IMG/VR virus record: IMGVR_UViG_3300027747_002439
Coordinates: 54,851-74,850 of that record
DNA length: 20,000 nucleotides
Reading direction: 5' to 3' (one strand)
Source: an uncultured virus (IMG/VR IMGVR_UViG_3300027747_002439)
Lineage: Duplodnaviria > Heunggongvirae > Uroviricota > Caudoviricetes
Shown: piece by piece, positions 1-10,486 of the stretch
Layout of the letters: each line of letters starts with the position of its first letter
How positions within the stretch are numbered: position 1 is the first letter of the stretch
Program-made: the position numbers and the translations under genes
The notes under the pieces: model-generated
Databases searched by the model: none
What the model was told of the DNA's origin: nothing
The model's input: only the letters and a program-made list of their open reading frames with translations

Positions 1-108
1 GGAAACTGTGGAGCTAGAGTCTGTGTCAATTGCCCAGTCCGCGTGAGCAGGTGTTGCGATGAGAGTTGCCATGGAAACAATCCCAAGTAGCGTTATACGT
101 CTTTTCAT
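1..108 (-). CDS. N-terminal part of a secreted/exported protein (runs off the window)
   Basis: Manual translation MKRRITLLGIVSMATLIATPAHADWAIDTDSSSTVS: basic N-terminus, hydrophobic core and AHA cleavage motif; GAAAGG SD upstream on - strand. Not in the ORF track. Confidence 0.7.
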   Translation of the reverse strand, partial: MKRRITLLGIVSMATLIATPAHADWAIDTDSSSTVS

Positions 109-210
109 CTTAGTGCCTTTCGTAGTGTGTCATTTAGTATAATAGACAATATCACATAGAGGCCAGAACGTACAACTATCACCGCAGGTTTTGTGGGATA
201 CTATCTATCA

Positions 211-486
211 ATGGAATTCAACGACGATATAGACCCTGATTTTGGTAGAGATGATGATGTTCTAATGCAGTATCTTGAGGAGGAAGGGCTACTCCTCGTC
301 CCCGTTGAGTTCATGAAGGAACTGATGGCTCTCATGGAGACATACATCCAGAACGTATGTGACGTAGATAGGGATGAACTTAGCGAGATCTTAACCCGTC
401 TAGAGGATCTTCTAGGGGAAGACGGCATGATGGACTTATCTATTGAAGGTATCGTCGGCTGGGTAAATACGCTAAAAGCTGTCTAG
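211..486 (+). CDS. Very acidic hypothetical protein (91 aa)
   Basis: ORF 193..486; start moved to ATG 211 because TACTAT (199-204) lies 6 nt upstream. 25 D/E versus 5 K/R. Confidence 0.75.
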   Translation: MEFNDDIDPDFGRDDDVLMQYLEEEGLLLVPVEFMKELMALMETYIQNVCDVDRDELSEILTRLEDLLGEDGMMDLSIEGIVGWVNTLKAV

Positions 487-491
487 GATCC

Positions 492-500
492 TGTTATAAT
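492..500 (+). promoter_or_regulatory. Extended -10 promoter TGtTATAAT
   Basis: Perfect TGnTATAAT just after the stop at 486, with no convincing ORF downstream until 759. Confidence 0.7.
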
Positions 501-506
501 TTAAGC

Positions 507-723
507 ATCGCCACTGGCCTGGTGCCGCCATCAGTAGCTTGTCACAACGAAAGCGAACCTTCGCTAATCCCGCCAATGCGAATCGTCCTGGATAAGACGT
601 ACAACTGTCATCCACTCCAACTTCAGAGTTGAGTGTCTAGCACTGGCTGGGTAGACATCGAGTGGGTTGTTGATTAGCGAGCTATCGTTACGGGTAGCAT
701 AAGAAGCGCTGCCAGTGCTAGAC
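507..723 (+). ncRNA. Candidate structured non-coding RNA, family unassigned
   Basis: Own promoter. Complementary segments 561-569/672-680, 612-617/660-665, 618-622/627-631, 634-639/652-657 and 635-647/711-723 (13 bp perfect); T-rich tract at 728-742. Confidence 0.6.
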
Positions 724-758
724 CCGATTCTTTCTAATTTTTATGATACAGTTCATTC

Positions 759-1109
759 ATGACACCGGAGATCTTTGTTCGCCCTTGGGGCTTCTATGTA
801 ATCCTTCACACTGAGCAAAAAGTACAGGTCAAACGAATACACGTTGAAAACGGAAGTCGTTTAAGTAAGCAATCACACAAACACCGCGCGGAGCATTGGT
901 ACATCACGCAAGGTTACGCGGAGGTCGAGCTATTTGACCAGATACTTCATCTTGGCCCAGGAGACTACGTCTCAATTGGGGTTGGAGAAGTTCACCGCGT
1001 AAGAGCCGAAGGCGAAGGCGACCTCGTCTTTATCGAGATTCAAACAGGTGAGTATCTTGGAGAAGATGACATCATTAGATATGAAGATGATTTTGGACGT
1101 GTTGAGTAG
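759..1109 (+). CDS. Cupin, mannose-6-phosphate isomerase type II (ManC C-terminal)-like
   Basis: RPWG, LSKQSHKHRAEHW, HRV and IEIQTGEYLGEDDIIRYEDDFGR motifs. Confidence 0.9.
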   Translation: MTPEIFVRPWGFYVILHTEQKVQVKRIHVENGSRLSKQSHKHRAEHWYITQGYAEVELFDQILHLGPGDYVSIGVGEVHRVRAEGEGDLVFIEIQTGEYLGEDDIIRYEDDFGRVE

Positions 1110-1666
1110 TGGAGCAAGAGCTTCCTACGTGGTTTAACCACGTTAAACCAAACTTTGAAAACTACCTGAGGATTGAATCTCCCTTAACTGTTTTACAGAT
1201 CGGAGTATATGAGGGTGACACAACACAGTGGTTATTAGACAATAAAAACATCAACAGGATAGTAGACGTTGACACCTGGGAAGGCTCAATAGAGCACGAA
1301 GGTACCTTTGACTTTAACCAGGTTGAGAGAGTCTACGACGAGCGATTTGCTAAAATTGAAAAGGTTGAAAAGCGTAAGGGCACAAGTGATAAATACTTTG
1401 CGACATGCCCTGCAAGTGAAAGATTTAACGTTGTCTACATAGACGGAGATCACACCGCACTGCAGACCGTGATTGATGCCCTTCATGGCTGGCGCGTGCT
1501 GGAGGTTGGCGGGATCATGATATTTGACGACTACGACTGGCACATGTATCAAGGAACACCCTTACACCCTAAGGACGGTATTGATTGCGTTCTAAGGCTG
1601 TTTAGAGGACGCTACAACCTTATCGTTACGAACTACCAGGTCTGGATTCGTAAGACCGCGGAGTAG
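1109..1666 (+). CDS. Class I SAM-dependent methyltransferase (Methyltransf_24-like)
   Basis: LQIGVYEG motif I, VDVDTW, YIDGDH, GGIMIFDDY; start overlaps the upstream stop (TAGTG). Confidence 0.85.
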   Translation: MEQELPTWFNHVKPNFENYLRIESPLTVLQIGVYEGDTTQWLLDNKNINRIVDVDTWEGSIEHEGTFDFNQVERVYDERFAKIEKVEKRKGTSDKYFATCPASERFNVVYIDGDHTALQTVIDALHGWRVLEVGGIMIFDDYDWHMYQGTPLHPKDGIDCVLRLFRGRYNLIVTNYQVWIRKTAE

Positions 1667-1705
1667 GCTTTTATCAATCATATGTAGATAAGATAAAATA
1701 AGCCT

Positions 1706-2602
1706 ATGCCTATTCTTGGAACAATCGCGAGCGGGTACAATGTACCTTTGTCAATTGTCACTGGCGGTACACTTACTAGTGACGCAACTTATTACTACCG
1801 TACATTTACTTCTACCGCAGACTTAGTAGTCACTGCAGCTCCTCTTACTGCAGATGCTCTTGTAATTGCAGGCGGAGGCCCAGGCGGAAATAACTCGGCT
1901 GGAGGATACGCTTCTGGCGGTGGAGCTGGTGGAGTTCAATATGGAGCTGCAACTTCTTTTTCGGCGGGAACTTACACGGCAACAATTGGTGGCGGTGGCA
2001 GCCTTGGGTCTAATGGAGTTGATTCTTCACTAGGTTCTTTATTTATCGCAAAGGGCGGCGGTAGAGGCGTATTAGCTAGTGCTGTAGACGGAGTAGCTGG
2101 CGGATCTGGCGGTGGAGCAAGCGGTAATCAGGGCACATCAGCAACAGCAACAGGTGGCGCAGCTACAAGCGGCACTGGCGGAATTTTTTATGGAAATAAA
2201 GGTGGAGATTCTTTTGGTGGCACAAACGGTGCGTATCCAGCGCAAGGTGGCGGAGGCGGCGCGGGCGCAGCAGGAGGTAGCGTGTCTCTTAGCGGAGGGT
2301 ACGGAGAAACTCCTGGCGGGTCGGGCGGAGATGGATTAAGCACTTGGTCATCTTGGGCAACTGCAACTGGAACTGGTAGAAGCGGATATTACGCAGGTGG
2401 TGGATGCGGCGGATACAGAGTTGATGCTTCTAGTGGACAAGCTGGCGCAGGTGGAGGCGGTGGGTACGGAGTTGCAGGTGGCACTAATACTGGTGGTGGC
2501 GGCGGCGGAGCTTTGAACGGCGGTCAATACAATACAGTAAGTGGCATAGGTGGATCTGGTATTGTTATTGTTCGCTATCTTCGTTCTGCAGTGGGTGGTT
2601 AA
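1706..2602 (+). CDS. Glycine-rich domain protein (putative virion fibre/appendage)
   Basis: TGGT...YRTFT, LVIAGGG, YYAGGG and GGSGIVIVRY: one complete glycine-rich module. Confidence 0.8.
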   Translation: MPILGTIASGYNVPLSIVTGGTLTSDATYYYRTFTSTADLVVTAAPLTADALVIAGGGPGGNNSAGGYASGGGAGGVQYGAATSFSAGTYTATIGGGGSLGSNGVDSSLGSLFIAKGGGRGVLASAVDGVAGGSGGGASGNQGTSATATGGAATSGTGGIFYGNKGGDSFGGTNGAYPAQGGGGGAGAAGGSVSLSGGYGETPGGSGGDGLSTWSSWATATGTGRSGYYAGGGCGGYRVDASSGQAGAGGGGGYGVAGGTNTGGGGGGALNGGQYNTVSGIGGSGIVIVRYLRSAVGG

Positions 2603-2619
2603 GTAATATAATTGCAAGT

Positions 2620-2847
2620 ATGAGCGACGTAATAATAGAAGTTGATACTGAAGCAGATCTGCGCACTAACAGCGGAGATCACGACAAGTTTTCGCATTAT
2701 ATTCACCGCGATGCAGCAATGGAAGCATACGTAGAAGGCAAGCCTGCTATCGCTTTATGTGGAAAAATATGGGTTCCAACAAGAGACGGAACAAAATTTC
2801 CTGTCTGCAAGCCGTGTAAAGAAATCTTTGAAACACTAGGAAGTTAA
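2620..2847 (+). CDS. DUF3039-family actinobacterial metal-binding protein
   Basis: GDHDKFSHY...ALCGKIWVPTRD...PVCKPCKEI pattern. Confidence 0.85.
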   Translation: MSDVIIEVDTEADLRTNSGDHDKFSHYIHRDAAMEAYVEGKPAIALCGKIWVPTRDGTKFPVCKPCKEIFETLGS

Positions 2848-2920
2848 CACGCTTTAACGAAAAAGCAGTATAATTCGTCATCTAATTTTGATCTAAAATT
2901 ACAACATATTCCAGGGGGTT

Positions 2921-4963
2921 TTGGTGAGCTTTTTCTCTTTCAAACTAAGCGATGATTTTGTGCAAGGGTATCGAGGAAAGAAAGCTCCTTTTGGCTACAC
3001 TGATGCAGCAGGAAACTCTGTTGGAGAAATTACTTTTCTTCGCACGTACTCTCGCTTAAAAGAAGACGGCACCAAGGAAACTTGGGCTGACGTATGCGAG
3101 CGTGTCATCAATGGCATGTACTCTATTCAAAAAGATCACTGCAAAAGCCAAAGACTTCCTTGGAATGATTCAAAGGCACAGGCATCTGCAAAGGATGGAT
3201 TTGATAGACTATTTAATCTAAAGTGGACACCGCCAGGTCGTGGTCTCTGGGTTATGGGTACTCCTTTAGTTAACGTGCAAAAGAACTCTGCAGCACTGCA
3301 AAACTGTGCATTTGTTTCAACACTTGAAATGACAAAGCAAAACCCAGCAAAGCCTTTTGCGTTTCTTATGGAAGCGTCAATGCTCGGCGTTGGTGTAGGA
3401 TTTGATGATAAAGGTGCAGACAAAGATTTTGTGATTTATTCACCGCAAGGAGAGGAAACATACGTTGTCCCAGACACAAGAGAAGGATGGGTTGAATCAC
3501 TCTCAATCATCCTCAATGCTTACCTCAAGCCAGATCAGAAGGCTCCATTATATGATTACAGCCAAGTCCGCCCAGCAGGTATTCCAATCAAGACGTTCGG
3601 TGGCACAGCCGCAGGACACGAACCGTTAGAACGTTTACACAACTACATCCGTAAACTATTTGAAGGACGCGCCGGTGAAAAAGTTACTCGTACTGATCTT
3701 GCTGACATCGGTAATCTTATTGGCGTGTGCGTTGTTTCTGGCAACGTTCGTCGCTCAGCTGAACTTCTAATCGGTCGCCTTGATGACGATACGTTCCTAA
3801 ACCTTAAGAACACAGAGCGTTTCCCAGAGCGCAATAGCTATGACCCAGCATCACCGGGTTGGGGCTGGATGTCAAACAACTCCATTGAAACAACAGTAGG
3901 ACAAGATCTAGACAAGATCGTTGAGGGCATTGCCCGCAACGGAGAGCCTGGCGTAGTCTGGATGGACGTATCACGTAAGTATGGTCGTTTAGCAGATCCA
4001 GTAAACAACAAGGATCACCGCGTAGTTGGATACAACCCTTGCGCAGAGCAGTCACTTGAATCATACGAGTGTTGCACGCTTGTTGAGACGTATCTAGGAC
4101 GTCACGATTCACTAGAAGACTACAAGCGCACGTTGAAGTTTGCATATCTATATGCTAAGACAGTGACGCTGCTTCCTACTCACTGGGAGGAGACAAACGC
4201 AATCATGCAACGCAACCGCCGTATCGGAACTTCAATGTCCGGTGTAGCTAACTTTGCAGACAACGTTGGTTTACCAACTCTGCGTGAGTGGATGGACGAA
4301 GGATACAAGACAGTCAAGACGTATGACAACACGTATTCAGAGTGGCTTGGTATTCGTGAGTCTATTAAGATGACTACCGTTAAGCCTTCAGGTACAGTTT
4401 CAATCTTGGCAGGAGAGTCACCGGGAGTTCACTGGACACCAGGCGGAGAGTACTTTAACCGCGCAATTCGTTTCTCTAACGAAGATCCAATGTTGCCTCT
4501 CTTCAAGATGGCAAACTACAGAGTTGAGCCTGCGTCAGAGTCACCAGACTTTACGAGCGTCGTGTTCTTCCCTATCAAGTCAAGCGCTAAGCGTGCCGAG
4601 AAGGAAGTATCAATCTTTGAGAAGACAGCAATCGCCGCAACAGCGCAGCGCTACTGGTCAGACAACTCTGTCTCTGTAACCGTATCATTTGATCCTGAAA
4701 AGGAAGCGGAGCACGTAGGAACAGTTCTTCACATGTACGACGGACAGTTGAAGACAGTGTCCTTCCTGCCGATGGGTAACTTCACATATCCGCAGATGCC
4801 ATACACGCAGATCACCGCAAGTGAGTATGAGGATGCGACGATGAAGTTGTTTCCTATTGACTTCACCGGAGTCTACGCAGGAATGGCGTCGGATGCAATC
4901 GGAGATGCGTACTGCACAACTGATGCGTGCGAGGTTAAGCTTATCGTGGAGAACATGAAGTAA
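2921..4963 (+). CDS. nrdJ: Class II (adenosylcobalamin-dependent) ribonucleotide reductase, monomeric RTPR type
   Basis: PPGRGLW, NCAF, VVSGNVRRSA, catalytic NPCAEQ..ECCTL, KPSGT and C-terminal CTTDAC redox pair. Start is TTG 2921 or GTG 2924. Confidence 0.93.
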   Translation: MVSFFSFKLSDDFVQGYRGKKAPFGYTDAAGNSVGEITFLRTYSRLKEDGTKETWADVCERVINGMYSIQKDHCKSQRLPWNDSKAQASAKDGFDRLFNLKWTPPGRGLWVMGTPLVNVQKNSAALQNCAFVSTLEMTKQNPAKPFAFLMEASMLGVGVGFDDKGADKDFVIYSPQGEETYVVPDTREGWVESLSIILNAYLKPDQKAPLYDYSQVRPAGIPIKTFGGTAAGHEPLERLHNYIRKLFEGRAGEKVTRTDLADIGNLIGVCVVSGNVRRSAELLIGRLDDDTFLNLKNTERFPERNSYDPASPGWGWMSNNSIETTVGQDLDKIVEGIARNGEPGVVWMDVSRKYGRLADPVNNKDHRVVGYNPCAEQSLESYECCTLVETYLGRHDSLEDYKRTLKFAYLYAKTVTLLPTHWEETNAIMQRNRRIGTSMSGVANFADNVGLPTLREWMDEGYKTVKTYDNTYSEWLGIRESIKMTTVKPSGTVSILAGESPGVHWTPGGEYFNRAIRFSNEDPMLPLFKMANYRVEPASESPDFTSVVFFPIKSSAKRAEKEVSIFEKTAIAATAQRYWSDNSVSVTVSFDPEKEAEHVGTVLHMYDGQLKTVSFLPMGNFTYPQMPYTQITASEYEDATMKLFPIDFTGVYAGMASDAIGDAYCTTDACEVKLIVENMK

Positions 4964-5142: not shown

Positions 5143-5177
5143 CGTACTTTTGTCATAGTTCAATATAGAATTATTTA

Positions 5178-5480
5178 ATGGCAAAACATAACCCGCAGCT
5201 TCTCAACCTGCGCCCTGTCTATGATGACTGGGCATGGCAGGAACAGTCTAACTGTCGTGATGTAGATTCAGATCTATTCTTTTTAGATCTGATGGCACGT
5301 GGCAAGGAAAAACGTGAAAAAGAAAAAGCTGCCAAGAAGGTGTGTAGAGGTTGTCCTGTTTTGGAACAATGCTTAAGTCATGCTCTTTCAATTCCAGAGT
5401 TCTTTGGTGTCTGGGGCGGAATGACAGCGGACGAACGAAACTTTATTCTTCGCAAGCAAGGATTAAGAATAGTTAAGTAA
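5178..5480 (+). CDS. whiB: WhiB-family Fe-S transcription factor (WhiB3-like)
   Basis: WAWQ..C...LFF...AKKVCRGCPVLEQCLSHAL...GVWGG: four cysteines plus GVWGG turn. Confidence 0.93.
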   Translation: MAKHNPQLLNLRPVYDDWAWQEQSNCRDVDSDLFFLDLMARGKEKREKEKAAKKVCRGCPVLEQCLSHALSIPEFFGVWGGMTADERNFILRKQGLRIVK

Positions 5481-5536
5481 GTGTAAACTAAAAACTTATA
5501 GTTTACAAGAATTCCTATTGTGTGTATGGTCCGTCC

Positions 5537-5824
5537 ATGGCACTAGACATACAGCTATCTAGCAATTACCCTGTCTTCAAAGATCTTGGAGTCCCTGCTT
5601 GTGCGACTACAGATCCTGAGATTTTCTTTCCAGAAAAAGGAGCAAAGGGCCAATCTCAATACATCATTGGCGCAGCGCGAAGAATGTGTGCAGGCTGTCC
5701 TTATAAAGAGCCGTGCCTTGCATGGGCAGTAGAGCACGATGAAATGGGAATCTGGGGCGGAACTACCCAGAAAGAACGACGTGTTCACCGCAGAAAGTTA
5801 AAAGTAACAAACAGCAATAAATGA
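5537..5824 (+). CDS. whiB: WhiB-family Fe-S transcription factor (WhiB2-like)
   Basis: CATTDPEIFFPEKG...CAGCPYKEPC...GIWGG...ERR with a basic tail. ATG 5537 lies 6 nt after TATGGT. Confidence 0.93.
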   Translation: MALDIQLSSNYPVFKDLGVPACATTDPEIFFPEKGAKGQSQYIIGAARRMCAGCPYKEPCLAWAVEHDEMGIWGGTTQKERRVHRRKLKVTNSNK

Positions 5825-10390: not shown

Positions 10391-10413
10391 GACTTTATAA
10401 TATCGTGAACCAG

Positions 10414-10486
10414 AGCGGACGACCGGGTTTGAACCGGCGACCTGAACCTTGGCAAGGTTCCGCGCTACCAACTGCGCTACGTCCGC
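10414..10486 (-). tRNA. tRNA-Gly (anticodon GCC), CCA not encoded
   Basis: GCGGACG/CGTCCGC acceptor stem, U73, D-arm GCGC-AGTTGGTA-GCGC, anticodon arm GAACC-TTGCCAA-GGTTC, T-arm GCCGG-TTCAAAC-CCGGT. Confidence 0.97.

Follow-up and report, generated by a model that had tools for sequence, protein, structure and literature searches.

A candidate stand-alone structured RNA with an apparently pseudoknotted core in freshwater actinophages

We find that a 272-nt gap between two genes of an uncultured virus of the Caudoviricetes holds a structured RNA element whose helices are preserved, mostly by compensatory changes, throughout a family of related phage sequences. The DNA analyzed, hereafter the window, is a stretch of 20,000 nt that makes up bases 54851–74850 of a 74.8-kb IMG/VR virus entry (IMGVR_UViG_3300027747_002439), and the element lies between an open reading frame (ORF) for a 97-aa acidic protein (193–486) and a 116-aa cupin gene (759–1109) that matches the C-terminal domain of mannose-6-phosphate isomerase (ManA; PF01050, E = 6e-30). 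The RNA gene would extend on the plus strand from position 507 to about 735, a length of ~225 nt. The family comprises 34 IMG/VR contigs and 37 metagenome loci, some of them on the same scaffolds, and falls into seven sequence groups (G1–G7) with subtypes. On balance we favor the view that this is a stand-alone structured non-coding RNA gene whose product acts in trans, as a folded particle with a conserved partner, because the cassette of promoter, RNA and tail appears autonomous.

Structure and covariation of the RNA

All members were segmented by element, which gave one common architecture, described here in window numbering and on the plus strand. The main alignment, made with MAFFT from 26 cores (24 of them distinct), was not fitted to any structure. 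Of its 936 pair cells 96.6% hold standard pairs, a share that falls to 30.7–40.8% when the 3′ partners are slid by 1–3 columns, and compensatory changes on both sides are found in 20 of the 39 core pairs. The covariation score is 0.450, compared with 0.196 ± 0.012 in shuffled alignments, none of 500 of which reached the observed value, and an earlier alignment of 23 sequences gave a similar picture. Of the six separate core helices that persist in the family, five do so through compensatory changes. G-U cells outnumber A-C cells 44 to 6, which points to the plus strand as the one that folds. The covariation among homologues that the original prediction had proposed to look for is thus strong.

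The variable 5′ domain (508–581) is closed by an interrupted helix, P1 (508–510/579–581, 512–513/577–578 and 515–516/574–575), and contains a hairpin at 537–554. RNAalifold, applied to 11 sequences of G1 and G2, predicted 15 pairs in this domain, 5 of them with compensatory changes, and P1 is supported within these groups. Outside them, other P1 sequences, as read from the individual members, close a different 5′ domain, and P1 is only 72% paired in the cross-group alignment because the MAFFT alignment of this domain is unreliable across groups. Members of subtype G1b (L085, L094 and L181) carry a 5′ domain of the G3 type on a core of the G1 type, a mixture that implies recombination at the border between P1 and P2, and in G6 (L219/L220) the 5′ domain is absent while the core is kept. 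The best explanation would be that the 5′ domain is an exchangeable accessory and that the functional unit is the 3′ core, 584–723.

The core opens with the hairpin P2 (584–599; stem 584–587/596–599), in which a CGTC/GACG stem carries an 8-nt loop (588–595) with the consensus C-Y-G-R-R-Y-R-W. It is followed by an A-rich, unpaired joiner of 10 nt, J (600–609), which reads TACAACTGTC in the window; the stretch TACAACTG is identical across G1–G4, and G5–G7 have CAAAACTTCT, TAAAAAGACC or TAAAAACGCC at a constant length of 10 nt. Helix P3 (610–617/660–667) then encloses the hairpin P3a, the 5′ strand of a long-range helix and a second joiner. P3 occurs in five sequence versions (CCACTC/GAGTGG, CCGTCC/GGACGG, CCACCC/GGGTGG, CCCGA/TCGGG and CCCAA/TTGGG), with 93% of cells paired and 3 of 8 pairs compensatory. 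P3a (618–631; stem 618–622/627–631) is paired in 99% of cells, with 1 of 5 pairs compensatory (CAACT/AGTTG vs CATCT/AGATG); in G4 it has grown into an arm of 37–58 nt, and inserted arms bring the G4 RNA to ~330 nt. The long-range helix joins 635–647 to 711–723 by 13 bp, of which 10 are compensatory and 98% of cells paired; there are at least seven sequence versions of it, all complementary. The second joiner (648–659), of conserved length (12–13 nt), connects its 5′ strand to the 3′ strand of P3, and A653, C656 and A657 in it are invariant in all 28 sequences of alignment A5; the unpaired G669 and A673 are invariant too. P5 (676–679/707–710; 3 of 4 pairs compensatory, 99% of cells paired) abuts the 3′ strand of the long-range helix and has P4 inside it (682–686/693–697; 3 of 5 pairs compensatory, 91% paired). 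Helices that the original prediction had drawn at 584–599, 612–617/660–665, 618–631, 681–698 and 635–647/711–723 are therefore present and held across the family.

The strands of P3 and of the long-range helix interleave, so that the RNA is a pseudoknot if both exist together. A single pseudoknotted fold containing both is the simplest reading of the alignments, and alternation between the two would also be compatible with the sequence. The connecting strands of 17, 12 and 43 nt would make coexistence sterically plausible. In G1 and G2, furthermore, the tail 724–731 can pair with 625–632 at the expense of P3a, so that the 3′ helix would reach as far as the T tract. Of 186 cells in this extension 78% are paired; compensatory changes occur at 2 of its 8 pairs, and G3 and G5 have lost it.

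An autonomous cassette in one phage clade

An extended -10 promoter, TGTTATAAT, is found on the plus strand at 492–500, as originally predicted. A perfect TATAAT stands directly upstream of the RNA in all 53 family sequences with sufficient upstream DNA, 40 of which also have the TGn extension. As 5–7 nt separate the box from the first helix in every group (P1, or, in G6, P2 at a distance of 5 nt), the RNA seems to begin with a helix, and transcription would start at about 507, ~7 nt past the TGnTATAAT box. A promoter of its own, at a fixed distance from the first structural element, is what is expected of a stand-alone small RNA. At the other end, a T-rich tail (724–742, plus strand) is the likely 3′-end region, judged from its sequence and from the flanks, which diverge 6–10 nt past position 723, the end of the long-range helix, in different contexts. 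Such tails are present in G1, G2, G4 and G6 and absent from G3, G3b and G5, and a terminator scan called none at the RNA.

The RNA does not appear to encode a protein. The largest ORFs in 487–758 have 36 codons on the plus strand and 47 on the minus strand, none is conserved, and no reading frame is kept, since the alignments of relatives carry indels of 1 and 2 nt. We therefore reject a coding role, in line with the initial view that the region has no credible ORF.

When the loci around homologues of the cupin gene were collected, the gap sequence was recovered from 20 related contigs at 77–100% identity. Identity to 14 distinct relatives is 0.99 over 596–625 and 0.97 over 626–655, compared with 0.46–0.92 in the flanking coding DNA, which indicates purifying selection on a non-coding sequence. 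An invariant search word, CGTCCTG-N5-GACGTACAACTG, matched only true members in IMG/VR (28 of 28) and true members at 37 of 46 metagenome loci, the other 9 being chance matches. The same word gave 11 matches in 185,579 prokaryote species genomes, and none of them was a true member; all were unrelated and mostly in coding DNA. A covariance model, R1, found nothing at E ≤ 1e-4 in 151 Actinomycetota genomes, which are a sample only and include no cellular positive control. Run with its filters off on the loci around homologues of the 97-aa protein, R1 did reveal more divergent members in which the word is missing (L219/L220, L224, L229 and the truncated L228). A relaxed pattern, GACGTACAACTGNNATCC, hit 31 loci, 28 of which were already known and 3 of which were chance matches in genes, and a structure-based pattern scan gave 25 matches, all on known contigs. 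Among cultured phages (INPHARED), positions 1–3000 of the window were unmatched and the core gave only 21-nt chance matches in Lactococcus phage capsid genes. With R1, three complete ~130-kb genomes show one copy apiece, and a fourth relative, G001, which is 100% complete and has a 90% identical cupin gene, shows none. We take the family to belong to one clade of ~130-kb freshwater actinophages.

The cupin gene follows the RNA directly in G1, G2, G3, G5 and G6. It has its own promoter, as the original prediction had it: the extended -10-like box TGATACAGT (744–752; feature 744–761, plus strand), which is not part of the RNA and is conserved in G1–G3, G5 and G6. This TGnTAnnnT box lies 6 nt before the ATG at 759 with no Shine-Dalgarno sequence, which is a leaderless-type arrangement. 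Downstream of the RNA cassette lie at least 10 different contexts, across which its shape is retained. A convergent minus-strand ORF follows the RNA in L054, L091, L100, L175 and L166/L179, and in L010 an insertion of two genes separates the RNA from the cupin gene, the cupin promoter staying with the latter. At loci of the G001 type (L018, L019, L020 and L023), finally, cupin genes are present without the RNA. Considering these varied contexts, the separate cupin promoter, the single copy in three genomes and the absence from G001, we regard the promoter, RNA and tail as an autonomous accessory cassette. The original proposal of a stand-alone, promoter-driven structured phage RNA gains support both from this autonomy and from the covariation.

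We also observe that the insertion in L010 (1413–2981; also in L003 and L167) is ~1.5 kb placed exactly between RNA tail and cupin promoter, and encodes a 367-aa glycine-rich protein and a 137-aa protein. At the RNA-less loci (L018–L020 and L023; 2394–3000) and in G001, the small acidic gene is followed at once by a leaderless methyltransferase gene, whose ATG has a TGATATAGT box 6 nt upstream, and only then by the cupin gene. In the window itself, 8 of 25 ORF starts have a TAnnnT box 5–8 nt before the start codon and no ribosome-binding site (744–761, 1694–1708, 2606–2622 and 5160–5180 among them), which suggests that leaderless transcripts may be widespread in this phage.

Possible functions of the RNA

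Several covarying helices, a pseudoknot and conserved unpaired nucleotides at a junction are the usual signature of RNAs that are catalytic or that bind a specific partner. By analogy, the same combination here suggests that the RNA may form a specific binding pocket or an active site. In the mechanism that we propose, the RNA would start ~7 nt past the TGnTATAAT box with its first helix at the 5′-end, and the 13-bp helix would join the interior of P3 to the 3′-end and stack on P5 and P4. The resulting pseudoknot would gather J, the 648–659 joiner and the strand 668–675 at a multi-helix junction, where the conserved unpaired nucleotides could bind a conserved partner, be it a protein of host or phage or a small ligand. 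The GC-rich 13-bp helix, together with the T-rich tail, could also serve to end the transcript.

A number of observations weigh against a stand-alone structured RNA or limit how far it can be taken. The minimum free energy of 507–742 is -73.6 kcal/mol, with z = -1.54 against dinucleotide shuffles, 16 of 200 of which were at least as stable (the minus strand has z = -1.07). The original prediction had expected a folding energy better than that of shuffles, which is not the case, and as the RNA would fail on this point we referred the question of structure to its relatives; the case for structure thus rests on covariation and not on energy. The unconstrained minimum free energy fold moreover differs from the conserved one, nested versions of which, with P3 or with the long-range helix, reach -64.7 and -57.7 kcal/mol. 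The 4 pairs of P2 are invariant in all 24 distinct sequences, so that covariation speaks neither for nor against this pairing. With few members, all from one phage clade, the family includes many sequences that are related by recent descent. In G3 and G5, which have no T tract, 3 nt separate the end of the long-range helix from the cupin promoter, so that transcription could run on into the cupin gene; U-less terminators are known in Actinobacteria. In four metatranscriptome runs, searched as assembled contigs, the family is present in RNA libraries of three studies: one contig of 236 nt matches 454–689 at 100% identity (depth 2.3) and begins upstream of the proposed start, another of 152 nt, from a relative of the G1b type, covers 580–679 (depth 14.3), and a third of 1322 nt, from a relative, spans 403–802. 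These contigs carry neither transcript ends nor strand and could stem from carried-over DNA, and we draw no conclusion on transcription from them. Lastly, a Pfam scan of 129 of the 154 ORFs of the complete genome revealed no RNA-binding or RNA-modifying protein, and thus nothing like a reverse transcriptase, Ro/TROVE, RtcB or an RNA ligase; most of the other ORFs lie in the window, 16 of whose ORFs were scanned as well.

In a comparison of four genomes, three ORFs were present in the RNA-bearing G002 and G003 and missing from the RNA-less G001, one of them coding for a tail-fibre-assembly-like protein of 118 aa. We considered these linked fibre ORFs as partners of the RNA and judged their co-occurrence to reflect linkage, not partnership.

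Alternatively, the RNA could be a cis-regulatory, riboswitch-like leader, in which the core would be the aptamer and the 13-bp helix, extended by 625–632/724–731 and followed by the T tract, a terminator that competes with P3a. Such a leader would control read-through into the cupin and methyltransferase genes. The position directly upstream of the cupin gene in five groups, the complex, covarying, aptamer-like fold with its conserved junction nucleotides and the ability of the tail to pair with the 3′ strand of P3a in 78% of cells in G1 and G2 would all fit this, and the phage manA and wcaG motifs offer a precedent for RNAs upstream of sugar genes (PMC2864571). However, a riboswitch should lie consistently upstream of, and co-oriented with, the genes it regulates, and the RNA occurs in at least 10 contexts and stays whole even when it is followed by a convergent or an unrelated gene. 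The conserved TGATACAGT box gives the cupin gene a promoter of its own, 6 nt ahead of an ATG that has no Shine-Dalgarno sequence, and cupin genes without the RNA exist at the examined loci L018, L019, L020 and L023. In addition, the extension helix is lost in G3 and G5 and covaries at only 2 of its 8 pairs. On the whole we consider such a leader unlikely.

That the RNA is a new ribozyme, self-cleaving or other, with the pseudoknot and the unpaired J and 648–659 as its active site, strikes us as improbable as well. P3 crosses the 13-bp helix to form a pseudoknotted core, the most conserved nucleotides are unpaired and placed at the junction, and the order of strands resembles the nesting of P1 and P2 in hepatitis delta virus (HDV)-like ribozymes and of P3 and P7 in group I introns. 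Nevertheless, the RNA matches no ribozyme family in Rfam, J is not invariant across G5–G7, and the 12–13 nt joiner has no self-complementary hairpin like the P3/L3 of HDV.

The original prediction had gone further and proposed a two-state switch, in which two copies of CACTGGC (512–518 and 641–647) compete for a single GCCAGTG at 711–717 and so toggle the RNA between two mutually exclusive folds: Fold A, closed by 512–518/711–717, and Fold B, built on 635–647/711–723. We find this very unlikely. Both pairings are perfect in the window sequence, the unconstrained minimum free energy fold resembles Fold A, and one relative (L186), as read from its sequence, can still form 8 of the 9 pairs that would join its 5′ copy to an altered 3′ strand. 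Yet the 5′ copy belongs to the 5′ strand of P1, where 508–516 covary with 574–581; it is mutated without compensation in L083/L104 and absent from G1b, G3, G3b, G4, G5 and G7, and G6 has no 5′ domain at all. Since the 5′ copy thus forms part of P1, mutates uncompensated and is missing from most groups, competition between the copies is unsupported. Nor did the other helices peculiar to the proposed folds survive comparison among 27 sequences: the closing stem 512–518/711–717 is paired in 76% of cells, with 12–17 gapped rows at four of its seven pairs; 561–569/672–680 is paired in 69% and conflicts with the covarying P5; 601–605/666–670 is paired in 61% and shows no covariation; and 634–639/652–657 is paired in 83%, with one pair broken in 15 of the 27. 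The hairpin 552–565 is specific to the window sequence and the hairpin 571–580 is not kept in the family. On that alignment the architecture described above scores 92.8% paired. P3, which had been assigned to Fold A, and the long-range helix of Fold B both covary and cross, and need not exclude each other if the fold is pseudoknotted.

It is hardly credible that the element is no RNA at all, i.e., a protein-binding or recombination site at the level of DNA, a small protein gene or the product of chance complementarity. In DNA the 13-bp helix is an inverted repeat too, and part of J (ACGTACAACT.TCA) recurs at 168–181, upstream of the neighboring gene, but six helices are kept, five through compensatory changes, G-U pairs are tolerated on the plus strand only (44 vs 6 cells), a promoter precedes the element in all members, and indels of 1–2 nt break any frame in the absence of a conserved ORF.

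Relation to known RNAs and the phage setting

The inability to assign the RNA to a recognizable family, already noted in the original prediction, is borne out by Rfam 15 (4227 models). At gathering score only the tRNA at 10414–10486 passes in the whole window; at E ≤ 10 the region 430–800 gives only a 15-bit noise match to SNORD108, and seven other members give, at E ≤ 5, only noise outside the RNA. ARAGORN found no tRNA or transfer-messenger RNA in the RNA region and only a tRNA-Gly at 10413–10486 elsewhere.

Like 6S RNA and Ms1, which are discrete RNAs of ~200–300 nt that have their own promoters and act in trans on a conserved machine, the window RNA may be a small trans-acting transcript, and one of its single strands partly resembles an element upstream of the promoter of a neighboring gene. 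6S RNA and Ms1 are rod-like with a central bubble, whereas the window RNA would be a branched pseudoknot, and it has no Rfam match to either. That it binds RNA polymerase as they do would be pure speculation. With HDV-like ribozymes and the group I intron core it shares interleaved strands in the order 5′a-5′b-3′a-3′b and a hairpin between 3′a and 3′b. It differs from them in a second helix of 13 bp, in conserved sequence upstream of the first helix and in that it is no intron but lies between genes behind a promoter of its own, and it has no Rfam match there either. Neither the P3 hairpin with L3 of the HDV-like fold nor a model match was found, and the joiner 648–659 has no conserved self-complementarity. 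GOLLD and ROOL are several-fold larger than the window RNA. They are reported to resemble it in being stand-alone, heavily structured, found by covariation and often located in phage or prophage DNA (bioRxiv 10.1101/2024.12.08.627333), but they have Rfam families of their own, which do not match the window RNA.

The nearest analogues in kind are the manA (RF01745) and wcaG (RF01761) motifs of cyanophages, which are phage-borne, multi-stem RNAs with a proposed pseudoknot, known mostly from aquatic metagenomes; the manA motif sits in the 5′ untranslated region of genes for mannose, fructose or related metabolism (PMC2864571). The likeness is that of an aquatic phage RNA often found beside sugar genes, a ManA C-terminal-like cupin following in most groups here. 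Unlike these motifs, the window RNA gives no match to their covariance models even at E ≤ 10 over 430–800, is hosted by a lake actinophage rather than a marine T4-like cyanophage, has its own promoter with a leaderless promoter downstream, and persists away from the cupin gene: where the PF01050 cupin does follow, in G1, G2, G3, G5 and G6, it has its own promoter, and the other members precede unrelated or convergent genes.

A catalogue built from IMG/VR in 2023 reports 10,006 viral RNA candidates of 29–151 nt (Fremin et al., PMC10690425). Its tables, as far as they were accessible, contain none of six contig numbers of the family and no cupin or ManA entry in the "within 25 bp" table, and a partial listing of the RNA at ≤151 nt is possible. 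We found no description of the family in the literature. As it has no match in Rfam 15 and no published description, and as the 2023 catalogue was checked in part, we file it as an undescribed RNA family; the claim of novelty covers the family and not the kind of function.

The window is identical to a stretch of a complete 129.5-kb genome with direct terminal repeats (G004), and the gene content points to a phage of Actinobacteria. On its plus strand the window has two adjacent WhiB-family genes (5178–5480 and 5522–5824), a DUF3039 gene (2620–2847) and a class II (B12-type) ribonucleotide reductase gene with an apparent TTG start (2921–4963), besides genes for glycine-rich fibre proteins; the tRNA-Gly (GCC) called by ARAGORN at 10413–10486, which scores 68 bits to the Rfam tRNA model (10414–10486), is on the minus strand. 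The complete genome adds a siphovirus-type tail protein, a terminase, many sugar-modifying enzymes and collagen-like fibres. DNA sequencing runs that contain at least half of the sampled words (X4–X6, from three studies, with three possible source runs set aside) are labeled freshwater metagenome or metagenome. In genomes of G1 and G4 a small serine recombinase of the resolvase type (219 aa) lies 1–5 kb from the RNA (G004, 116649–117308, plus strand; L054, 3–410, minus strand), and between the two are collagen-like and tail-fibre-assembly-like genes whose orientation varies among lineages.

The 97-aa acidic ORF upstream of the RNA has no Pfam or PHROG match. Before it, at 168–181, the beginning of the J/P3 segment (597–610; ACGTACAACT.TCA) recurs on the same strand, with an exact 10-mer and 14 of 16 positions alike overall; relatives retain ACGTAAAACTRTCACCGCARG there even in genomes without the RNA, and the chance of such a 10-mer, estimated post hoc, is ~0.01. 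This likeness could reflect a shared binding factor or just shared ancestry. WTCACCGC, in turn, occurs 18–32 times in each of the ~130-kb genomes G001–G004 (L203–L209, L257–L277), mostly inside genes, compared with ~7–8 times in mononucleotide shuffles.

To our knowledge, few structured RNAs of this sort have been described from phages of Actinobacteria, and we know of none from uncultured lake actinophages. The core of ~150 nt is compact, has clear boundaries and comes with a natural set of variants, including a group (G6) that carries it without the 5′ domain, and the RNA therefore lends itself directly to probing, to screens for cleavage and for ligands, to pull-downs and to the determination of its structure. 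Some of a set of otherwise similar 130-kb genomes have it and others do not, a distribution that suggests an accessory role in taking over the host or in defence. Tentatively, and as a possibility that we hold well short of probable, the family could represent a new class of phage functional RNA, whose pseudoknotted core would be a particle that catalyzes a reaction or binds a ligand, or else a decoy titrating some factor of host or phage, perhaps one that recognizes an ACGUAMAACU-type element such as also occurs upstream of the promoter region of the neighboring gene. If that is true, a clade of lake actinophages would carry an RNA-based tool for take-over or counter-defence that has no described relative.

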